From the sequence record MN655998.1: 64,000 nt of DNA, one strand, 5' to 3'. Below the pieces are notes generated by a model. It was given only the letters and a program-made list of their open reading frames with translations, did not search any database and was not told the DNA's origin. This stretch comes from Escherichia phage E26. Of this stretch, positions 10,701 through 33,005 are shown piece after piece; positions within the stretch are counted from its first letter, which is position 1, and every line of letters starts with the position of its first letter. Made by a program: the position numbers and the translations under genes.

Positions 10701-11787
10701 TGTCTCAATAAAACTTTATCAGGATTATGAGGCGTTTCTAAATCATCGCTTTATAGAGTTGGGTGCTACCTTTGTTACAATGACTCTGCGTGATTCGATC
10801 CGTGGGGTCAATGAAGGATTGTTGCAATTCTATGATAATAAAGCGATGCATACAAAATTAAACGGACGAGAGATTATTCAGATTTCGCTATCCACTGCCA
10901 ACACAGATGAAGTGTTCAACCGAATCTATGGGATCTCTCATAGTAATGTAACTATTGACCAAAAATCTGACAACATTTTAACATTCCAGTTAAAGAGCTA
11001 TCACGAAACACTAAACCTTAAATTTTCTCGCGCATTGACAAATAACGCTGTTAATAACGTAACCAGTATGATTGATGCCATCTATAAGGAAGTTCCTTTA
11101 TGGAAACCTACTATAAAGGGCGATAACGTTGTTATTCCTCGTTGCCCGTGGGTTAGTACCATAAATGACTATATGGATTTTGTTAGGGCATACGGGCAAA
11201 GCGTAGAAACCGAGTCTTTCGTGTATTGCTGGGAAGATTTTGATGGTATAACGATCGCTGGACACGATACAATATTAAAAAATGAGCCAATACCAGCTAT
11301 AATCTGTGAGCCTAGACTCATGGGGCAATTTATTGATATGTCGCCTAATCTGATGGTTTTTAATTTCGAGTGGCAGACTAAGAGCAATGCTAAAGTTAAA
11401 AATTCATTTAGCAATGTGACATACACAACTATTGATTTTGTTACTAAGCAGTATAATAAAATTGTTGTTGGTAATGGGGATAATATTGCACACTTTGCTC
11501 ATGGTGGCGCTTATGGTAATTTAACTTATAAGAATGCGTTTTTGGAAGGTTCTAAACTTGCCATAATAGAACAATATGATTCATATGCTACCGCCGTGTG
11601 TCACGGTAATTTTTCGTTGCGCCCCGGTATGGTTATTCGATTCTTTGATGAGAAACAACAAGCACGCAATGATTTTATTGTTGACGAAGTTGTGCATGAA
11701 ATTAGCCGAGAGCAATCATTAACTCACCTGTATATGATCGGTAACAGCGAAGAATTACAGGAAGTAAAATTTGAAGGTAAGATATAA
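10678..11787 (+). CDS. 27: baseplate hub subunit gp27
   Basis: 369 aa; synteny 51-27-28-29; size close to T4 gp27. Confidence 0.8.
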   Translation: MQRTGFPNVSIKLYQDYEAFLNHRFIELGATFVTMTLRDSIRGVNEGLLQFYDNKAMHTKLNGREIIQISLSTANTDEVFNRIYGISHSNVTIDQKSDNILTFQLKSYHETLNLKFSRALTNNAVNNVTSMIDAIYKEVPLWKPTIKGDNVVIPRCPWVSTINDYMDFVRAYGQSVETESFVYCWEDFDGITIAGHDTILKNEPIPAIICEPRLMGQFIDMSPNLMVFNFEWQTKSNAKVKNSFSNVTYTTIDFVTKQYNKIVVGNGDNIAHFAHGGAYGNLTYKNAFLEGSKLAIIEQYDSYATAVCHGNFSLRPGMVIRFFDEKQQARNDFIVDEVVHEISREQSLTHLYMIGNSEELQEVKFEGKI

Positions 11788-27422: not shown

Positions 27423-27896
27423 TTACTCCTTATTTTCGCGCTCGTACTTTTCGAAATAAAATTCTACTGGCTGGTCATTAATTGACAGCAAGCCAAAGCG
27501 TTTAGCCGCTCGCAATCCCATATTGCGCTGAATGTACTTCTGGAAGTTCTCGCGTATACACTTACGCCAGTATTCTAAGCCCATACAGCTTTTATAAAGA
27601 TTGCATTGCACACACGCCGGATTCATGTTATCAAGTATATCATGTTCCGGTTTATGCATTCCTACAACCTTATACTTCCACGATCCATCATCATTACGGG
27701 CAATTCGTCCATTTTCATCATAGACTACCTTTGAGCGTCGCAATACTGGTTTGATGTGGTCTGCGTGCCAGCGATCCCCTAGTTCCTCGCCACAATAGGC
27801 ACAACGTCCACCATATTTCATTTTCAGGATCTGGCGTTGCTCTTTCTTTGACAATTTTTTAGGTTTAGGGGCTTTTGCCCCTTCATTATCACACAT
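27423..27896 (-). CDS. HNH endonuclease (freestanding, homing-endonuclease-like)
   Basis: 157 aa; CAYCGEEL...WHADHIKP HNH core and second Cys pair CVQCN; start overlaps end of ligase gene. Confidence 0.75.
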   Translation of the reverse strand: MCDNEGAKAPKPKKLSKKEQRQILKMKYGGRCAYCGEELGDRWHADHIKPVLRRSKVVYDENGRIARNDDGSWKYKVVGMHKPEHDILDNMNPACVQCNLYKSCMGLEYWRKCIRENFQKYIQRNMGLRAAKRFGLLSINDQPVEFYFEKYERENKE

Positions 27897-29391
27897 CGAA
27901 TACCTCTTTTACTGTATTTGCAGTGGTCTTGTCGTAGCGAATACGTTTGATGATTGGGAGAAATAAAGAGAACTCCGGTTCATCTTCTTTACGTGATTTG
28001 CTGCGGATATACCCGTTGCATGTCATCTCAATGACTTTTCCAATCAGGTTATGACGATCAGCCCATAACATTTCTCGGTCGAGTTCATTTCTACGATCGA
28101 ACGGAATTACACGTTCAATACCATCATCACCTTTTTCGGTTGTAGTGTCGGTTAATCCAGATCCGGTGTTAGTCATCATTCGTCCGCACGCACTACGGAC
28201 AGTAAAACCGCCTACCTTATTGGGGTCTTTACTATGCGGATATACATCAACAATTTCCGCGTCGAAGTCAATCACTTCTTTAAATTTAACCTGATCTTTA
28301 CTACGGCGATCTTCAAATACACCATGTAAATTTTTAAGGATAATACCTTCTAAGCCCATGTTTACATAGCGATGATATACTTCGCGAGCTTCGTCTATAT
28401 TGTTAACTACAGTGTTTTCGATTATCTGAACACGAGGATCGTTAAGTTCTTCAACAATCTGTTTTAGTTCTTCGAATCGATCTTTATATTGCTTCGTTGC
28501 TTTCTCGTTTCCGTAATACACATCACGGTCGATAACATCCCAGACAGTGTAAACAATACATTGGGCTTCTTCTTTTGGAATAGTTCCTTTCAGTGATTTG
28601 TTGAGGATACCATTTCCGGTCTGACGATCTGCAACAACGGATTCTTTTACTGCTTCCGCTACTGGAGTTAATGGCATTTCCTCTTCTTCAAATATCCATG
28701 ACAGAGTACCATCATAAACGCTCTCAACGAAGTTCTGCGCTGGTGTTTGTGAAAGGGTAGGCATATATACCAATTCGCCATCTAGAACAATTCCACGGCC
28801 TCGTAGACGCTCTAAAACCGCAAACAAATCATCAAGCCCTTGATAGGTATTACCTGAGCGGGTATAGATTGCTAATGTTTCCCCGTCAATATCAGCCATA
28901 CCACGAGCGCCATCGCTTTTAAGTTGTGCATACGCCGGATATTTGATATTGGCAATAGTCTTATCAGAACATGACGATGCAAGGTGGCACGGTTGCTGAG
29001 GAATCAGTTTCTTCCATACCTTGTTTGCAGTGGTAGCGGAACAGCCGCATTCCAGATCACGATTCAGGACCATCATCGCAACTTTAGCATCATCCTCTGA
29101 CAAGCAAGTCAGAGTATCGGTAACTAGCTGTAATGCTGCATTACCAGTTACTTGACGCGTGGCAAGTTTATTTTTAAAGACCTGTAATGCACCGGATAAA
29201 GACAATACAGACGAATAGCGAGATGGTTTATCGTATTTCTTTACGCCAAACGTAACCTGTTTGCAATATGCCAGATAAAAGCATTCTTTCAGCGTTTCAT
29301 TGCTCGCGGATTCTTTCAGGATCTTTTCTTTCAGCGATGTTTTGTCGGTTGCTGCAAGCTGATTAATGATATTAAGAATTGACATTTTCAC
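27889..29391 (-). CDS. 30: ATP-dependent DNA ligase gp30
   Basis: 500 aa; KADGAR adenylation motif, DGELV, EGIILK, near-colinear with T4 DNA ligase. Confidence 0.92.
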   Translation of the reverse strand: MKMSILNIINQLAATDKTSLKEKILKESASNETLKECFYLAYCKQVTFGVKKYDKPSRYSSVLSLSGALQVFKNKLATRQVTGNAALQLVTDTLTCLSEDDAKVAMMVLNRDLECGCSATTANKVWKKLIPQQPCHLASSCSDKTIANIKYPAYAQLKSDGARGMADIDGETLAIYTRSGNTYQGLDDLFAVLERLRGRGIVLDGELVYMPTLSQTPAQNFVESVYDGTLSWIFEEEEMPLTPVAEAVKESVVADRQTGNGILNKSLKGTIPKEEAQCIVYTVWDVIDRDVYYGNEKATKQYKDRFEELKQIVEELNDPRVQIIENTVVNNIDEAREVYHRYVNMGLEGIILKNLHGVFEDRRSKDQVKFKEVIDFDAEIVDVYPHSKDPNKVGGFTVRSACGRMMTNTGSGLTDTTTEKGDDGIERVIPFDRRNELDREMLWADRHNLIGKVIEMTCNGYIRSKSRKEDEPEFSLFLPIIKRIRYDKTTANTVKEVFDV

Positions 29392-29851: not shown

Positions 29852-30005
29852 TGAAACTAATCTCGCTAATCAGAGAGAACGGATCATAATCGTCATGAGG
29901 AATATCGACAGTAATCGAATGAGGATTTACCCATACACCAAACTGGTCTTCTTCGGTGAATACTTCGGTATGGATTTCGTGGATGTTTACATTCATAGTT
30001 TTCAT
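29841..30005 (-). CDS. small hypothetical protein (54 aa)
   Basis: Manual translation MKTMNVNIHEIHTEVFTEEDQFGVWVNPHS...; SD AAGGAA; overlaps next gene by 11 nt. Confidence 0.4.
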   Translation of the reverse strand: MKTMNVNIHEIHTEVFTEEDQFGVWVNPHSITVDIPHDDYDPFSLISEISFNDF

Positions 30006-30087
30006 AATAAAATTCCTTAATAATCAATAACTTACAAAATCATATAGCCAAAATATAGGCGGGATTATTTCCCGCCGTTTAAAATCA

Positions 30088-30411
30088 TTAACCGTAAACT
30101 ACCACAATATTCTGTTTGTGCGTTACAGTCCATTTCAGGTCGATCTCTTCTTCCTTCTTAACGCCGTTAATAACGTCTGGATGAGGAACTTTATTAAGTT
30201 TCCCATGAGGAAGCAATACAGTCTTGCCCAGCAATTCTTTATCAACGTTATCACCGATATCAATAATCTTACCGACTAAAGGAATCTCTCCCATAGTTCG
30301 TTTTTGCTCGATGATAATACCAAAATCGCTCTTTACTTCGGTCCCTGCGCTTTCCGCTTTAGCTTCAATGATCACATAGTCACCAAGTGCTTTAGGAGTT
30401 TTAACGGTCAT
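30088..30411 (-). CDS. 31: co-chaperonin GroES homolog gp31
   Basis: 107 aa; position after gene 30 region; GroES-like pattern GDYVIIEAKAESAG...G.IIE...GEIPLVGKIIDIG. Confidence 0.75.
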   Translation of the reverse strand: MTVKTPKALGDYVIIEAKAESAGTEVKSDFGIIIEQKRTMGEIPLVGKIIDIGDNVDKELLGKTVLLPHGKLNKVPHPDVINGVKKEEEIDLKWTVTHKQNIVVVYG

Positions 30412-30447
30412 AATTTTCTTACCTCTTCAATTCATCTCAATAGTAAA

Positions 30448-31065
30448 TTATTTATATTTCGCGACCTTTGGATTTCTCCGCAGACCGGAATGTATTTGCG
30501 CTATACAACAATAAGAAACATTAAACATATCAGCTATAATTTGCTTCTTAACTTTTCCTTTAAGCCGCATTATTTCTTCGACTTGCGCATTTGTCAGTTT
30601 TGCCCGTGAGTGGTTTTCACCGACATTGTTATTGAGTCCAGTTCTAAATGAATGTCTCATATTTTCTAGTAAGGTTACTATTTCTAGATTCCACACATAA
30701 TTGCAGGTTTTTACACCATTGATGTGATTAACCTCAAGTCCGGTAACGTCTCCTAGAAATGCATTTGCTACAAGTCGATGTATCTTTTCGGCTTTAACTG
30801 AGATTTTACCATTGTCTTTTTGTTTTGACAATGTTGAATAATAATATCCATATCGGTCTAAAATTGGTTTTATTATTTTACCAGCACGTTTTTGTTTTAC
30901 GAGCTTAATATTACCGGGAGAAACTTCTCTATAAAATTCGATACTTCGGTCAATAGATCTCAATCTACCATAATTAGAGATTTCATACCACGGATAACCT
31001 ACAGCTTGTCTCCATTCTTCCGGCGCTGGTAATACGATATTATCATCTTTTGTTTCCATTGTCAA
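30448..31065 (-). CDS. HNH homing endonuclease with NUMOD4-like N-terminus
   Basis: 205 aa; WYEISNYGRLRS (NUMOD4-like) and HRLVANAF...EVNHINGVKTCNYVWNLE (HNH_3). Confidence 0.75.
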   Translation of the reverse strand: MTMETKDDNIVLPAPEEWRQAVGYPWYEISNYGRLRSIDRSIEFYREVSPGNIKLVKQKRAGKIIKPILDRYGYYYSTLSKQKDNGKISVKAEKIHRLVANAFLGDVTGLEVNHINGVKTCNYVWNLEIVTLLENMRHSFRTGLNNNVGENHSRAKLTNAQVEEIMRLKGKVKKQIIADMFNVSYCCIAQIHSGLRRNPKVAKYK

Positions 31066-31388
31066 CTGCCACCGTAAATTTCGACGATCTGCGCTGGAGT
31101 CAGCCCGTCTACATTAATCAGACTATCAAGCCCAAAACTACGGAAACCTTCAACTGCAATTTCATATACTGGCAAAGATGTTTCTGAGTCTTTACGCGGT
31201 TTTTCAACATTCGGAACTAACCACTTTTCGTATGTTTCGAAAGGCATCAGTGCCGGATCTCGCGTGGCGATCATCTCACGGACAGTACCATCTTTCTTAG
31301 TAAACTGCAAAGAGTGAGTACCGACCGAAAACATTTTCTTTAGTGCTTCACGAAGTGCGATATTATCAACTTGTTCAGTCATTATCAA
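31062..31388 (-). CDS. hypothetical protein
   Basis: ORF track 108 aa. Confidence 0.5.
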   Translation of the reverse strand: MIMTEQVDNIALREALKKMFSVGTHSLQFTKKDGTVREMIATRDPALMPFETYEKWLVPNVEKPRKDSETSLPVYEIAVEGFRSFGLDSLINVDGLTPAQIVEIYGGS

Positions 31389-31881
31389 TACCCTTCAAAT
31401 CAGTCAATAATGCTTTTGGAATACGCGTGATCGTAATATCTGCATTATTCAGAATATCAGCCCAATCACGCCCACCATTTCGATCATATGTGTCGCAATA
31501 GTATAGATGTTTAATTCCACTGTTTGCAATTGCTTTAGCGCAATCTGGACACGGTGAAGCAGTACACCACATACTAGCGCCTTCAATCGATACACCGCTA
31601 CGGGCAGCAAACAAAATAGCATTTAATTCAGCGTGGATCTCGTTTTTCTGTGACCATGCACTATGCTCTGGTCGTTTTTCTGGGATCATTTTGCCGTCAT
31701 CATCCAGCCAACCGTTTTTATGTGCATGACAGCTACAATTTACTTGCCCTGCTGGAGTTCCGTTAAATCCAGTAGAAATGATTCGCCCGTCTTTTTCGAT
31801 CAGTGCGCCTACCTTCCACGAAACACATTTAGAGTTCTTTGCGATCAGATAGGCGATCTGCATGTAAGTTTGTGACAACAT
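31375..31881 (-). CDS. cd: dCMP deaminase
   Basis: 168 aa; zinc-binding deaminase motifs HAELNAI and PCPDCA. Confidence 0.88.
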   Translation of the reverse strand: MLSQTYMQIAYLIAKNSKCVSWKVGALIEKDGRIISTGFNGTPAGQVNCSCHAHKNGWLDDDGKMIPEKRPEHSAWSQKNEIHAELNAILFAARSGVSIEGASMWCTASPCPDCAKAIANSGIKHLYYCDTYDRNGGRDWADILNNADITITRIPKALLTDLKGIDND

Positions 31882-31902
31882 AATATAATCCTCACATATT
31901 AA

Positions 31903-32106
31903 TTAACCGTATACGCGAAAGTATTCTACTGACCCGTCGCTATACTGTTTTACATTGAATGTATTCACACCATGATTATTTCTCATGATGACATATACAC
32001 TACGACGTTCATCGCTAAACGGCATAACTGGTGCGGGTTCAATATCAACATTAAAACCACGTTTAGCAAGTGCTTCGCCCAATTTCTTGATTTTATCGGT
32101 AAACAT
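31903..32106 (-). CDS. small hypothetical protein
   Basis: ORF track 67 aa. Confidence 0.45.
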   Translation of the reverse strand: MFTDKIKKLGEALAKRGFNVDIEPAPVMPFSDERRSVYVIMRNNHGVNTFNVKQYSDGSVEYFRVYG

Positions 32107-33005
32107 TAAAAGTCTCCGTAGTTAACCTGAAAACATTCTACACCAATTGAGCGGTACATGTCAACCACTTGATCACGATCATCTACTGCCAACACAACAT
32201 GATAACGTGGTGCAATTTCAGAGAAGAAAATCTCTTTCTTCACTTCATGATCAGGACGACGATCATTAGTTTCACGTTGAAAGTGATCACTCGGTTCAAT
32301 ACCCTGTTCACGCAACCATTGCAGAGTATCTTCTTCGCAAACATCCTCACGCCCTGAGCATGTAATGATACGATAACCATTATCACGATACAGTTTAAGC
32401 ATTTCGATAACTTGCGGACGCGGTTTATCTTCTTTGACCTTTGTCCAGTCAAACGGATGACGACCGCCCTTATCCGCTAATGTTCCATCAATATCAAAGA
32501 TCACTGCCTTCGGCAGCATGGTATTCGGTTTGTATACTTCTTGACCCATATATTCCTGCATCAGATAAAATTGGTTACGCAAATGAGAAAGTGGAATTGC
32601 TTTCTCGCCTCGATAGAAATTACGTTTCTTTAGTGTCTCAAATGATTCATTGAACACTTGTTCAGTATACACCGCGTTAAATTCTTTTGCAAGTTCTTTG
32701 TAGAATACACGATGTTTTTCTTTCAGGTTGGTATCGGAGATAATGATACTCAATCCGCGTGATAGAGTCTCGCGAGCAATCATTCTCTGAATAGACTCTA
32801 CCAGCTTTTCCTTTTCCTTAGTATATTTGTATTTCAAAGGTGAGTCAACACCAAACAACATAAGACGAAGATCATCACGATTCACATTACGATAATTACT
32901 AAACCGTTTACATGTTTCCATAGCCCATGTAGTTTTACCGGACCCAGAACAACCAACGGTTAAAATCACTTCACATTTCGGCATTATTTCTCCTTCGGTT
33001 TGCAC
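32106..33005 (-). CDS. pseT: polynucleotide 5'-kinase / 3'-phosphatase
   Basis: 299 aa; Walker A GCSGSGKTTWA, HAD motif VIFDIDGTLA, LAVDDRDQVV; colinear with T4 Pnk. Confidence 0.92.
   Translation of the reverse strand: MQTEGEIMPKCEVILTVGCSGSGKTTWAMETCKRFSNYRNVNRDDLRLMLFGVDSPLKYKYTKEKEKLVESIQRMIARETLSRGLSIIISDTNLKEKHRVFYKELAKEFNAVYTEQVFNESFETLKKRNFYRGEKAIPLSHLRNQFYLMQEYMGQEVYKPNTMLPKAVIFDIDGTLADKGGRHPFDWTKVKEDKPRPQVIEMLKLYRDNGYRIITCSGREDVCEEDTLQWLREQGIEPSDHFQRETNDRRPDHEVKKEIFFSEIAPRYHVVLAVDDRDQVVDMYRSIGVECFQVNYGDF

Follow-up and report, generated by a model that had tools for sequence, protein, structure and literature searches.

A putative free-standing HNH homing endonuclease gene beside gene 31 of Krischvirus phages, and a divergent gene 31 tract linked to it on one side

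What is the ORF that lies directly upstream of the co-chaperonin gene 31 in Escherichia phage E26, how did it come to occupy this position, and where in the genome might its product act? These questions were addressed in a stretch of 64,000 nucleotides (record MN655998.1), hereafter the window, which is Krischvirus DNA (RB49/JSE/ECD7-like) and to which phage PHB13 is 99.2 % identical across the stretch compared (megablast). A preliminary description had interpreted the ORF as a Mob-type endonuclease with NUMOD4 and HNH_3 motifs, at an intergenic position between gene 31 and cd that is empty in T4. Our analysis indicates that the ORF is very probably a free-standing HNH homing endonuclease gene (HEG) of the I-HmuI type, with homing and read-through expression of the kind proposed below.

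The gene, its neighbours and its protein

The HEG and the genes discussed with it have the following positions in the window:

30448..31065, minus strand: HEG ORF, 205 aa when read from TTG (ORF list)
30448..31059, minus strand: HEG ORF when read from ATG, 203 aa plus stop, 612 nt
30088..30411, minus strand: gene 31, GroES-like co-chaperonin, the downstream neighbour (PHROG 931, E=4.7e-36; PDB 1G31, E=1.1e-11)
31062..31382, minus strand: 31.1-like gene, WYL_2/SH3 barrel (Pfam WYL_2, 37.6 bits)
31375-31881, minus strand: dCMP deaminase gene cd
27889-29391, minus strand: DNA ligase gp30

The minus-strand order is gp30, a 30.3 homologue, a 54-aa ORF, gene 31, the HEG, the 31.1-like gene, cd, a cd.2-like ORF and pseT, and the flanking ORFs are contiguous and complete around the HEG. 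The gene therefore does adjoin gene 31, as had been described, but the 31.1-like gene intervenes before cd. The TGA stop codon of the 31.1-like gene (31064-31062) precedes the HEG ATG by 2 nt (TGACAATG). The ATG at 31059, two codons inside the TTG start, is used by all GenBank annotations of the identical gene (612 nt / 203 aa), and is more likely to be the HEG start than the TTG at 31065; residue numbers such as N111 and H112 refer to the 203-aa protein. No Rfam family was found anywhere in the window, and as this includes intron RNAs, we regard the HEG as free-standing rather than intron-encoded. The window also contains no tRNA and, by tblastn, no paralogue of the HEG. The gene is slightly AT-richer than its surroundings (GC 0.34-0.36 vs 0.38-0.44), a difference too mild for base composition to be decisive as a sign of foreign origin.

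Both motif strings given in the preliminary description, GYPWYEISNYGRLRS and LEVNHINGVKTCNYVWNLE, are present in the ORF at 30448..31065, and an HMM search placed both Pfam profiles above their cut-offs. The domains of the protein, all encoded on the minus strand, are:

30829..31020, minus strand: NUMOD4 (PF07463), aa 16-79 of the 205-aa reading, 44.2 bits (Pfam cut-off 23.4)
30655..30786, minus strand: HNH_3 nuclease core (PF13392), aa 94-137 of the 205-aa reading, 35.4 bits (cut-off 24.8)
30487..30591, minus strand: predicted C-terminal three-helix (HTH-like) module, helices 157-165, 172-179 and 183-191 of the 203-aa protein, block pLDDT 75-92

The HNH profile match on which the preliminary description had staked its reading was thus found, and it covers positions 2-46 of the 46 in the HNH_3 profile, with NUMOD4 lying N-terminal to the nuclease. 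The ORF also matches PHROG 59 'HNH endonuclease' (E=1.2e-35). All residues that are invariant among 18 homologues (N111, H112, I113, G115, K117, N120, N124, L125 and N133) are present, together with H136, which is nearly invariant in the same alignment. The segment KTCNYVWNLE departs from the family consensus KTDNRVENLE, leaving the His and Asn positions unaffected; at the position equivalent to the consensus Asp, I-HmuI has Asn.

The AlphaFold (AF2) model of the protein (mean pLDDT 81.6) contains an N-terminal beta-sheet (strands 16-92, the NUMOD4 region), a beta-beta-alpha core, of the beta-beta-alpha-metal nuclease type, at residues 109-140 and a lower-confidence linker that leads into the three-helix module. 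This module shows weak local matches to LuxR/DeoR DNA-binding domains (Foldseek) and is predicted to bind DNA. Searched against the PDB with Foldseek, the model has a sole significant match, which spans its whole length, I-HmuI of the Bacillus phage SPO1 (1u3e; E=1.4e-6, prob 1.00, 195 columns). The TM score to 1u3e is only 0.45-0.52, as might be expected of an elongated multi-domain protein modelled without DNA. I-HmuI was likewise the only hit of phmmer against PDB sequences (E=1.4e-3). On the predicted structure, the HEG protein belongs with the I-HmuI-type HNH enzymes.

I-HmuI (PDB 1U3E) is the only significant match in both sequence and fold among solved structures, and shares with the HEG protein the order of an N-terminal beta-sheet, an HNH/N core, a helical linker and a C-terminal HTH. 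H112, N124 and N133 align with I-HmuI H75, N87 and N96, so that the catalytic His and two Asn correspond, although overall identity is only 22 %. In the H-N-N motif the His serves as general base and the Asn residues have structural and metal-binding roles. The two differ in other respects: I-HmuI is encoded in a group I intron of a Bacillus phage, whereas the HEG is free-standing in a T4-like phage of a Gram-negative host; the catalytic His is preceded by NH in the HEG protein, the norm of its subfamily, and by DH in I-HmuI; and the beta-hairpins at aa 41-60 and 80-90 are longer in the HEG protein. Nicking of one strand is the chemistry that we expect of the protein, since both I-HmuI-type and Mob HNH homing enzymes act in this way; MobA, MobE and I-HmuI are reviewed as single-strand nickases by Edgell, Gibb & Belfort (2010, PMC2988022).

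The comparison with the Mob endonucleases of T4 holds for lifestyle and fails for family. Like the Mob genes, and MobE in particular, the HEG is a free-standing HNH gene between conserved genes, apparently promoter-less, with a start that abuts the upstream stop codon, a putative promoter of the downstream gene towards its 3' end and, by expectation, a target in a neighbouring essential gene (PMC2988022). T4 MobB-E, however, carry a PF01844 HNH domain at aa ~21-50 (HHIIPR..GG.DD..NL) and never NUMOD4 or HNH_3; their nuclease lies at the extreme N-terminus, so the domain order is reversed relative to the HEG protein. Comparison of the HEG ORF with T4 MobA-E and I-TevIII by phmmer and blastp gave no significant match (phmmer at most 0.4 bits).

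Relatives of the HEG protein occur in 1129 phage records. A word-index-limited search of 5.8 billion proteins returned one near-identical cluster (98 %), all other matches being at most 44 % identical. Within the genus, other free-standing NUMOD4-HNH_3 HEGs, such as those of TB34, Cognac, Whisky and KMB43, have the same architecture and are also sporadic, but they are only ~36 % identical to the window HEG and lie at another locus. That Krischviruses differ in their number of HNH genes has been reported, with no functional study attached (PMC11611945), and the Krischvirus literature that we searched holds no functional data on this HEG. The gene itself is an ordinary, uncharacterized member of a well-known kind, already annotated in databases: it is labelled 'HNH_2: HNH homing endonuclease' in ECD7, 'HNH homing endonuclease' in ELT4, 'HNH endonuclease' in KFS-EC (RefSeq) and 'protein with NUMOD4 motif' in G37-3.

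A sporadic insert and the gene 31 tract linked to it

The preliminary description had taken T4 as the empty reference. The T4 order is 31, 31.1, 31.2, cd, so that the interval between 31 and cd is occupied and only the 56-nt spacer between 31 and 31.1 is free of ORFs. Given that the window is Krischvirus, the informative empty sites are those of its sister genomes. Among 59 related GenBank (Krischvirus) records, 11 contain the insert and 48 are empty, matching the locus in two pieces without the ~0.6 kb; this presence/absence pattern is as expected of a HEG. The prevalence is about one in five RB49-like coliphages, and the insert always lies at the same fixed position with identical sharp junctions. 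We aligned 10 occupied alleles, the window included, with 11 empty ones, which yielded 620 insert-only columns. The segments defined by this comparison are:

30455..31074, minus strand: 620-bp insert absent from the empty alleles (allele alignment)
30196..30447, minus strand: HEG-linked divergent tract of ~250 bp, comprising the leader of gene 31 and its first ~72 codons
30289-30355, minus strand: core of the tract, gp31 residues ~19-41, reading ..KSDFGIIIEQKRTMG.. in carriers and ..KSSMGIIIEQKRTMG.. in empty alleles

Immediately upstream of gene 31, the insert splits the penultimate codon of the 31.1-like gene, and the term 'intergenic' consequently does not describe it fully. On the coding strand the 31.1-like gene of an empty allele ends in ...GAA ATT TAT AAA TAA, and the occupied allele reads ...GAA ATT TA/C GGT GGC AGT TGA CA ATG ... 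GCG AAA TA/T AAA TAA, with slashes at the junctions. Both sides share ...AAAT(T/A)TA, which leaves each junction ambiguous by ~2 nt. The insert remodels the C-terminus of the 31.1-like protein from ...EIYK to ...EIYGGS, and the HEG ORF runs into the former ..YK-stop of the 31.1-like gene. The spacer right downstream of TATAAATAATT is wholly different between occupied and empty alleles.

Purifying selection acts on the HEG ORF: the window and phiS, the two intact copies that diverge most, differ by 17 synonymous and 3 non-synonymous changes (omega 0.045). Eight of the 10 compared carriers have an intact gene; the other two carry a frameshift that falls on the HNH motif or shortly ahead of it. 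At codon 118, G37-3 lacks 1 nt of an A5 run, and at codon 106 FL20 has gained 1 nt. These two copies reflect decay, as expected late in the life cycle of a HEG, or else errors of sequencing; the latter could hold for the frameshift in the A5 run.

On the gene 31 side of the insert, carriers and non-carriers differ sharply. Within the tract, dxy between occupied and empty alleles is 0.17 against a background of 0.02, while pi among occupied alleles is 0.0095. In successive 100-bp steps across 30199-30489, dxy is 0.19, 0.14 and 0.12 (elsewhere 0.01-0.03) and carrier diversity 0.008-0.017. The 26 fixed differences that separate occupied from empty alleles all fall within 30244-30445, a segment of gene 31 with its leader; on the 31.1/cd side, comparison of the 10 and 11 alleles gave no fixed difference even beside the junction. 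When the same genomes were divided at random into groups of 10 and 11, none of 2000 trials produced a fixed difference. The association extends to all 59 records: tract identity is at least 98.1 % in 11/11 carriers and 83-92.5 % in 48/48 non-carriers.

The carriers do not form a clade. The nearest neighbour in flanking sequence is HEG-less for 7 of 10 carriers on the left and 8 of 10 on the right, and in both flanks the diversity within carriers, the diversity within non-carriers and the divergence between them are equal, at about 0.02. From these flank values and nearest neighbours it follows that a single near-invariant cassette (pi 0.012) is found on backbones whose diversity equals that of the population as a whole. 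Most of the divergence in the gene 31 tract is synonymous, with whole-gene dS 0.65-0.70 and dN 0.03, and it comprises five amino-acid changes in gp31 (S29D, M30F, E54D, T55N and M72L). This pattern points to a functional gene 31 segment acquired from a much more distant lineage. A blastn search for the donor (11-nt words) returned only the 59 Krischvirus records, and we therefore consider that lineage to be unsampled.

Two HEG-less genomes are mosaics within the tract. JK32 has carrier-type alleles only at 30196-30226, and UPWr_E1 has them at ~30200-30285 and ~30360-30400, with empty-type sequence between. That these genomes took up carrier-type segments on either side of the core indicates that recombination occurs within the tract. 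The only segments never found without the HEG are the core at 30289-30355 and the spacer at 30418-30445. The mosaics narrow the linked core to ~65 bp, in which ~12 mostly synonymous differences are concentrated in some 45 bp. On T4 gp31 (1G31), the core falls on SGLIIGKRVQGE, a loop segment that is the GroEL-binding mobile loop.

Candidate target and competing explanations

The free-standing HEGs of T4 cut hundreds of bp away from their insertion point, in neighbouring and often functionally critical sequence, and co-convert the flanks (PMC2988022). This distant cutting, together with the strict one-sidedness of the tract, makes the gene 31 core the best candidate for the target. We hypothesize that the core at 30289-30355 is the recognition and cleavage site in empty alleles and that the changes in carriers confer immunity, a proposal drawn from natural sequence variation to which we give roughly even chances. 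Cleavage activity, the choice between a nick and a double-strand break, and the target site of the protein are all properties that we infer here. In a mixed infection, the enzyme would nick or cut the HEG-less genome at a site displaced from the insertion point, most likely the gene 31 segment for the GroEL-binding loop, and carriers would be immune through the ~12 changes. Recombinational repair, with the HEG-carrying genome as template, would then transfer both HEG and tract to the genome that was cut.

The closest parallels to this arrangement are SegF and SegG of T4, which are inherited with a stretch of an adjacent essential gene (56 or 32 in T4; 31 here) and whose cleavage is displaced from the insertion site, with marker exclusion (PMC2988022). 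SegF and SegG are GIY-YIG enzymes for which cleavage and co-conversion were shown experimentally, whereas the HEG is of the HNH type and both properties are deduced from natural variation.

A different active enzyme might account for much of the same pattern, namely one whose cut falls on the empty 31.1/31 junction or directly beside it, so that insertion destroys the site and the gene 31 tract is a mere hitchhiker. The closest structural relative, I-HmuI, is intron-encoded, and enzymes of that kind cut no more than ~25 bp from the insertion (PMC2988022). The complete difference between alleles in the spacer right after TATAAATAATT fits such a site, and the tract is only ~250 bp long, so its tight linkage requires no selection; the one-sided tract could indeed be plain hitchhiking of donor DNA beside the insert and no immunity determinant. 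However, a cut at the junction should leave traces of co-conversion on both sides, and fixed differences are confined to the gene 31 side. UPWr_E1 and JK32 carry carrier-type segments around the core but never the core itself, and cutting at a distance is characteristic of the free-standing HEGs of T4 (PMC2988022). We regard cleavage at the junction as somewhat unlikely, though the main competitor for the position of the target.

It is also conceivable that the gene is an inactive relic, which entered once from a distant phage by illegitimate recombination and is now spread and lost by ordinary recombination, with no homing. Frameshifts in 2 of the 10 compared carrier alleles, presence in only 11 of the 59 records, the off-consensus motif KTCNYVWNLE and the lack of relatives more than 44 % identical beyond the near-identical cluster could all be read in this way. 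Yet omega of 0.045 between the two most divergent intact copies (17 synonymous vs 3 non-synonymous changes) speaks against a relic. All catalytic positions are kept, 8 of 10 copies are intact, and the cassette is near-identical (pi 0.012) on backbones as diverse as the whole population. We consider this explanation improbable.

Transfer without homing, by PeSL-mediated shuffling, with the HNH protein serving another role such as nicking of competitor or host DNA or marker exclusion, is the least probable account and in our judgement very improbable: PeSL cassettes account for many insertions and deletions between RB49 and phi1 (Arbiol et al. 2010, PMC2839356), and a sigma70-like TTGACA-17-TAATAT lies exactly at the 5' junction (31065-31037), but no G/C-rich stem-loop accompanies this promoter-like site (z = +0.89) or flanks the 3' side, the empty alleles have no PeSL-like element at the site but only a late-promoter box TATAAATA, the locus belongs to the conserved core block lig-31-cd-pseT and not to a hyperplastic region, and the sporadic distribution speaks against a needed function. 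The notion of a PeSL + ORF cassette, in which PeSL elements (a sigma70 early promoter with a G/C-rich stem-loop) flank the ORF and occur as one copy at the empty site, was accordingly rejected, as it comes down to a hexamer pair at the 5' junction, with no stable stem-loop and no PeSL at the empty site.

Expression of the insert and significance of the locus

Two elements of the locus bear on how the HEG and gene 31 would be transcribed:

30449..30456, minus strand: TATAAATA box, overlapping the end of the HEG, its final codons and stop (..TAT AAA TAA)
30058..30076, minus strand: hairpin resembling an intrinsic terminator, downstream of gene 31; the records of G37-3, G2494 and G2248 annotate it too

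TATAAATA is the T4-type late-promoter consensus. The box lies 37 nt upstream of the gene 31 ATG in occupied alleles and 42-46 nt upstream in empty alleles, where it overlaps the final codons of the 31.1-like gene instead. The copy at 30449-30456 is the sole one on the minus strand of the 64-kb window, in which the total count of 7 against 5.6 expected is not significant. There is no canonical TATAAATA in the T4 31.1/31 spacer, and T4 consequently lends no support to a late promoter here; the case is drawn solely from the conservation of the box in both Krischvirus alleles. On this basis the box at 30449..30456 is a candidate promoter of gene 31. By insertion, the original box would have been displaced, and the last codons of the HEG would re-supply it ahead of gene 31. 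Promoters of downstream genes are known to become embedded in the coding regions of free-standing HEGs (PMC2988022).

The free-standing HEGs of T4 are often promoter-less cassettes that overlap upstream stop codons (PMC2988022). At the present locus, the hairpin after gene 31 is the sole terminator-like structure found in 29950-32150, from which cd, the 31.1-like gene, the HEG and gene 31 appear to be co-transcribed. The sigma70-like TTGACA-17-TAATAT at the 5' junction has an extended -10 element. We propose that the HEG is a cassette without a promoter of its own that would be read through from the cd/31.1 transcript. Its only Shine-Dalgarno-like element is a weak GGTGG 9 nt upstream, and its translation is probably coupled to that of the 31.1-like gene via TGACAATG. 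A hairpin that sequesters the ribosome-binding site, as in T4 mobE, segB and I-TevI, was considered and rejected, the fold of 31010-31130 showing no structure (z = +0.89).

HNH HEGs are very common in phages, and the HEG by itself matters little. The interest of the locus lies in the natural example that it offers, in which sharp junctions, a one-sided 250-bp tract, two mosaics and two apparently decayed copies lead to a precise prediction of the target. Within the literature searched, the one-sided gene 31 tract and the target that it implies have not been described previously, and gene 31 is absent from the known T4-family HEG targets listed in PMC2988022. Should the prediction prove true, gene 31 would join the essential genes of the T4 family that are hit by free-standing endonucleases.

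A more speculative consequence concerns the host. The tract replaces Ser-Met by Asp-Phe beside the Ile-Ile-Ile contact of the gp31 loop, and homing might drag this variant loop through the Krischvirus population, a suggestion that we hold to be improbable. If it were true, a selfish nuclease would be spreading a chaperonin-interaction allele, the host GroEL variants usable by the phage could change, and the locus would constitute a new HEG/target pair with a possible side effect on host range. For the genomics of Krischvirus phages in phage therapy, the HEG accounts for a 0.6-kb indel that turns up repeatedly and for the aberrant local divergence seen in gene 31.

A promoter-like site at the 5' junction

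A sequence resembling a sigma70 promoter begins precisely where the insert that carries the free-standing homing endonuclease gene (HEG) has its 5' border:

31037-31065, minus strand: sigma70-like promoter (TTGACA, 17 nt, TAATAT; 10/12), with a TG upstream of the -10 element

Initiation from this site would fall within the HEG ORF, downstream of the HEG ATG. The region contained 13 sigma70-like sites, compared with 7.2 +/- 2.7 expected. The site may represent an early promoter for gene 31 (the GroES-like co-chaperonin gene) that was imported with the cassette, or it may be a chance match in AT-rich DNA.

Identity and integrity of the 31.1-like gene

The gene whose penultimate codon contains the insert was identified as follows:

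31062-31382, minus strand: 31.1-like gene; its product is of the WYL_2 / SH3 beta-barrel type (Pfam score 37.6 bits)

The T4 31.1 annotation reads 'SH3 beta-barrel fold-containing', and many Krischvirus GenBank records label the 31.1-like gene 'tail fiber(s) protein'. This label looks like a propagated misannotation, as the match to PHROG 10657 is weak (3.7e-08) in comparison with that to PHROG 1086 (3.5e-34). In phage ELT4 (locus sequence L011), a 16-bp deletion at the window equivalent of 31260-31275 splits the 31.1-like gene into two annotated CDSs; therefore, either the gene is dispensable or the ELT4 assembly is faulty.

Other HNH genes and RNA elements

A second NUMOD4-HNH gene, 36 % identical and at a different locus, occurs sporadically among other Krischvirus records, including Whisky, SAP and KMB43 as well as:

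TB34, 98215-98748: second NUMOD4-HNH gene
Cognac, 11068-11601: second NUMOD4-HNH gene

No copy was found in the window. RB49 ORF040 has likewise been reported as a novel HNH HEG (PMC2839356). Across the whole 64-kb window (1-64000), neither a tRNA gene nor an Rfam family reaching the gathering threshold was found, and this part of the genome therefore lacks group I introns.

Frameshifted HEGs and variation at the empty site

Two HEG copies are each split into two CDSs by a single-base frameshift (coordinates of the locus sequences):

G37-3 (L007), 2154-2758: -1 nt at codon 118, in a run of five A residues within the HNH motif
FL20 (L008), 2149-2761: +1 nt at codon 106

These frameshifts could reflect true decay or homopolymer sequencing error.

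At the empty site, the spacer (equivalent to window position ~30435) varies in length among phages, with an additional ATAC in RB49 (L003) and TB34 (L018) (ATACATACAG versus ATACAG). Gene 31 is mosaic, and in part carrier-type, in two HEG-less phages:

UPWr_E1 (L022), 2490-2800 (window equivalent 30196-30411): mosaic gene 31 allele
JK32 (L017), 1880-2190 (window equivalent 30196-30411): mosaic gene 31 allele

The UPWr_E1 allele combines an empty-type core with carrier-type sequence on each side. In both phages, the mosaic may have been left behind by loss of the HEG or by partial co-conversion events.
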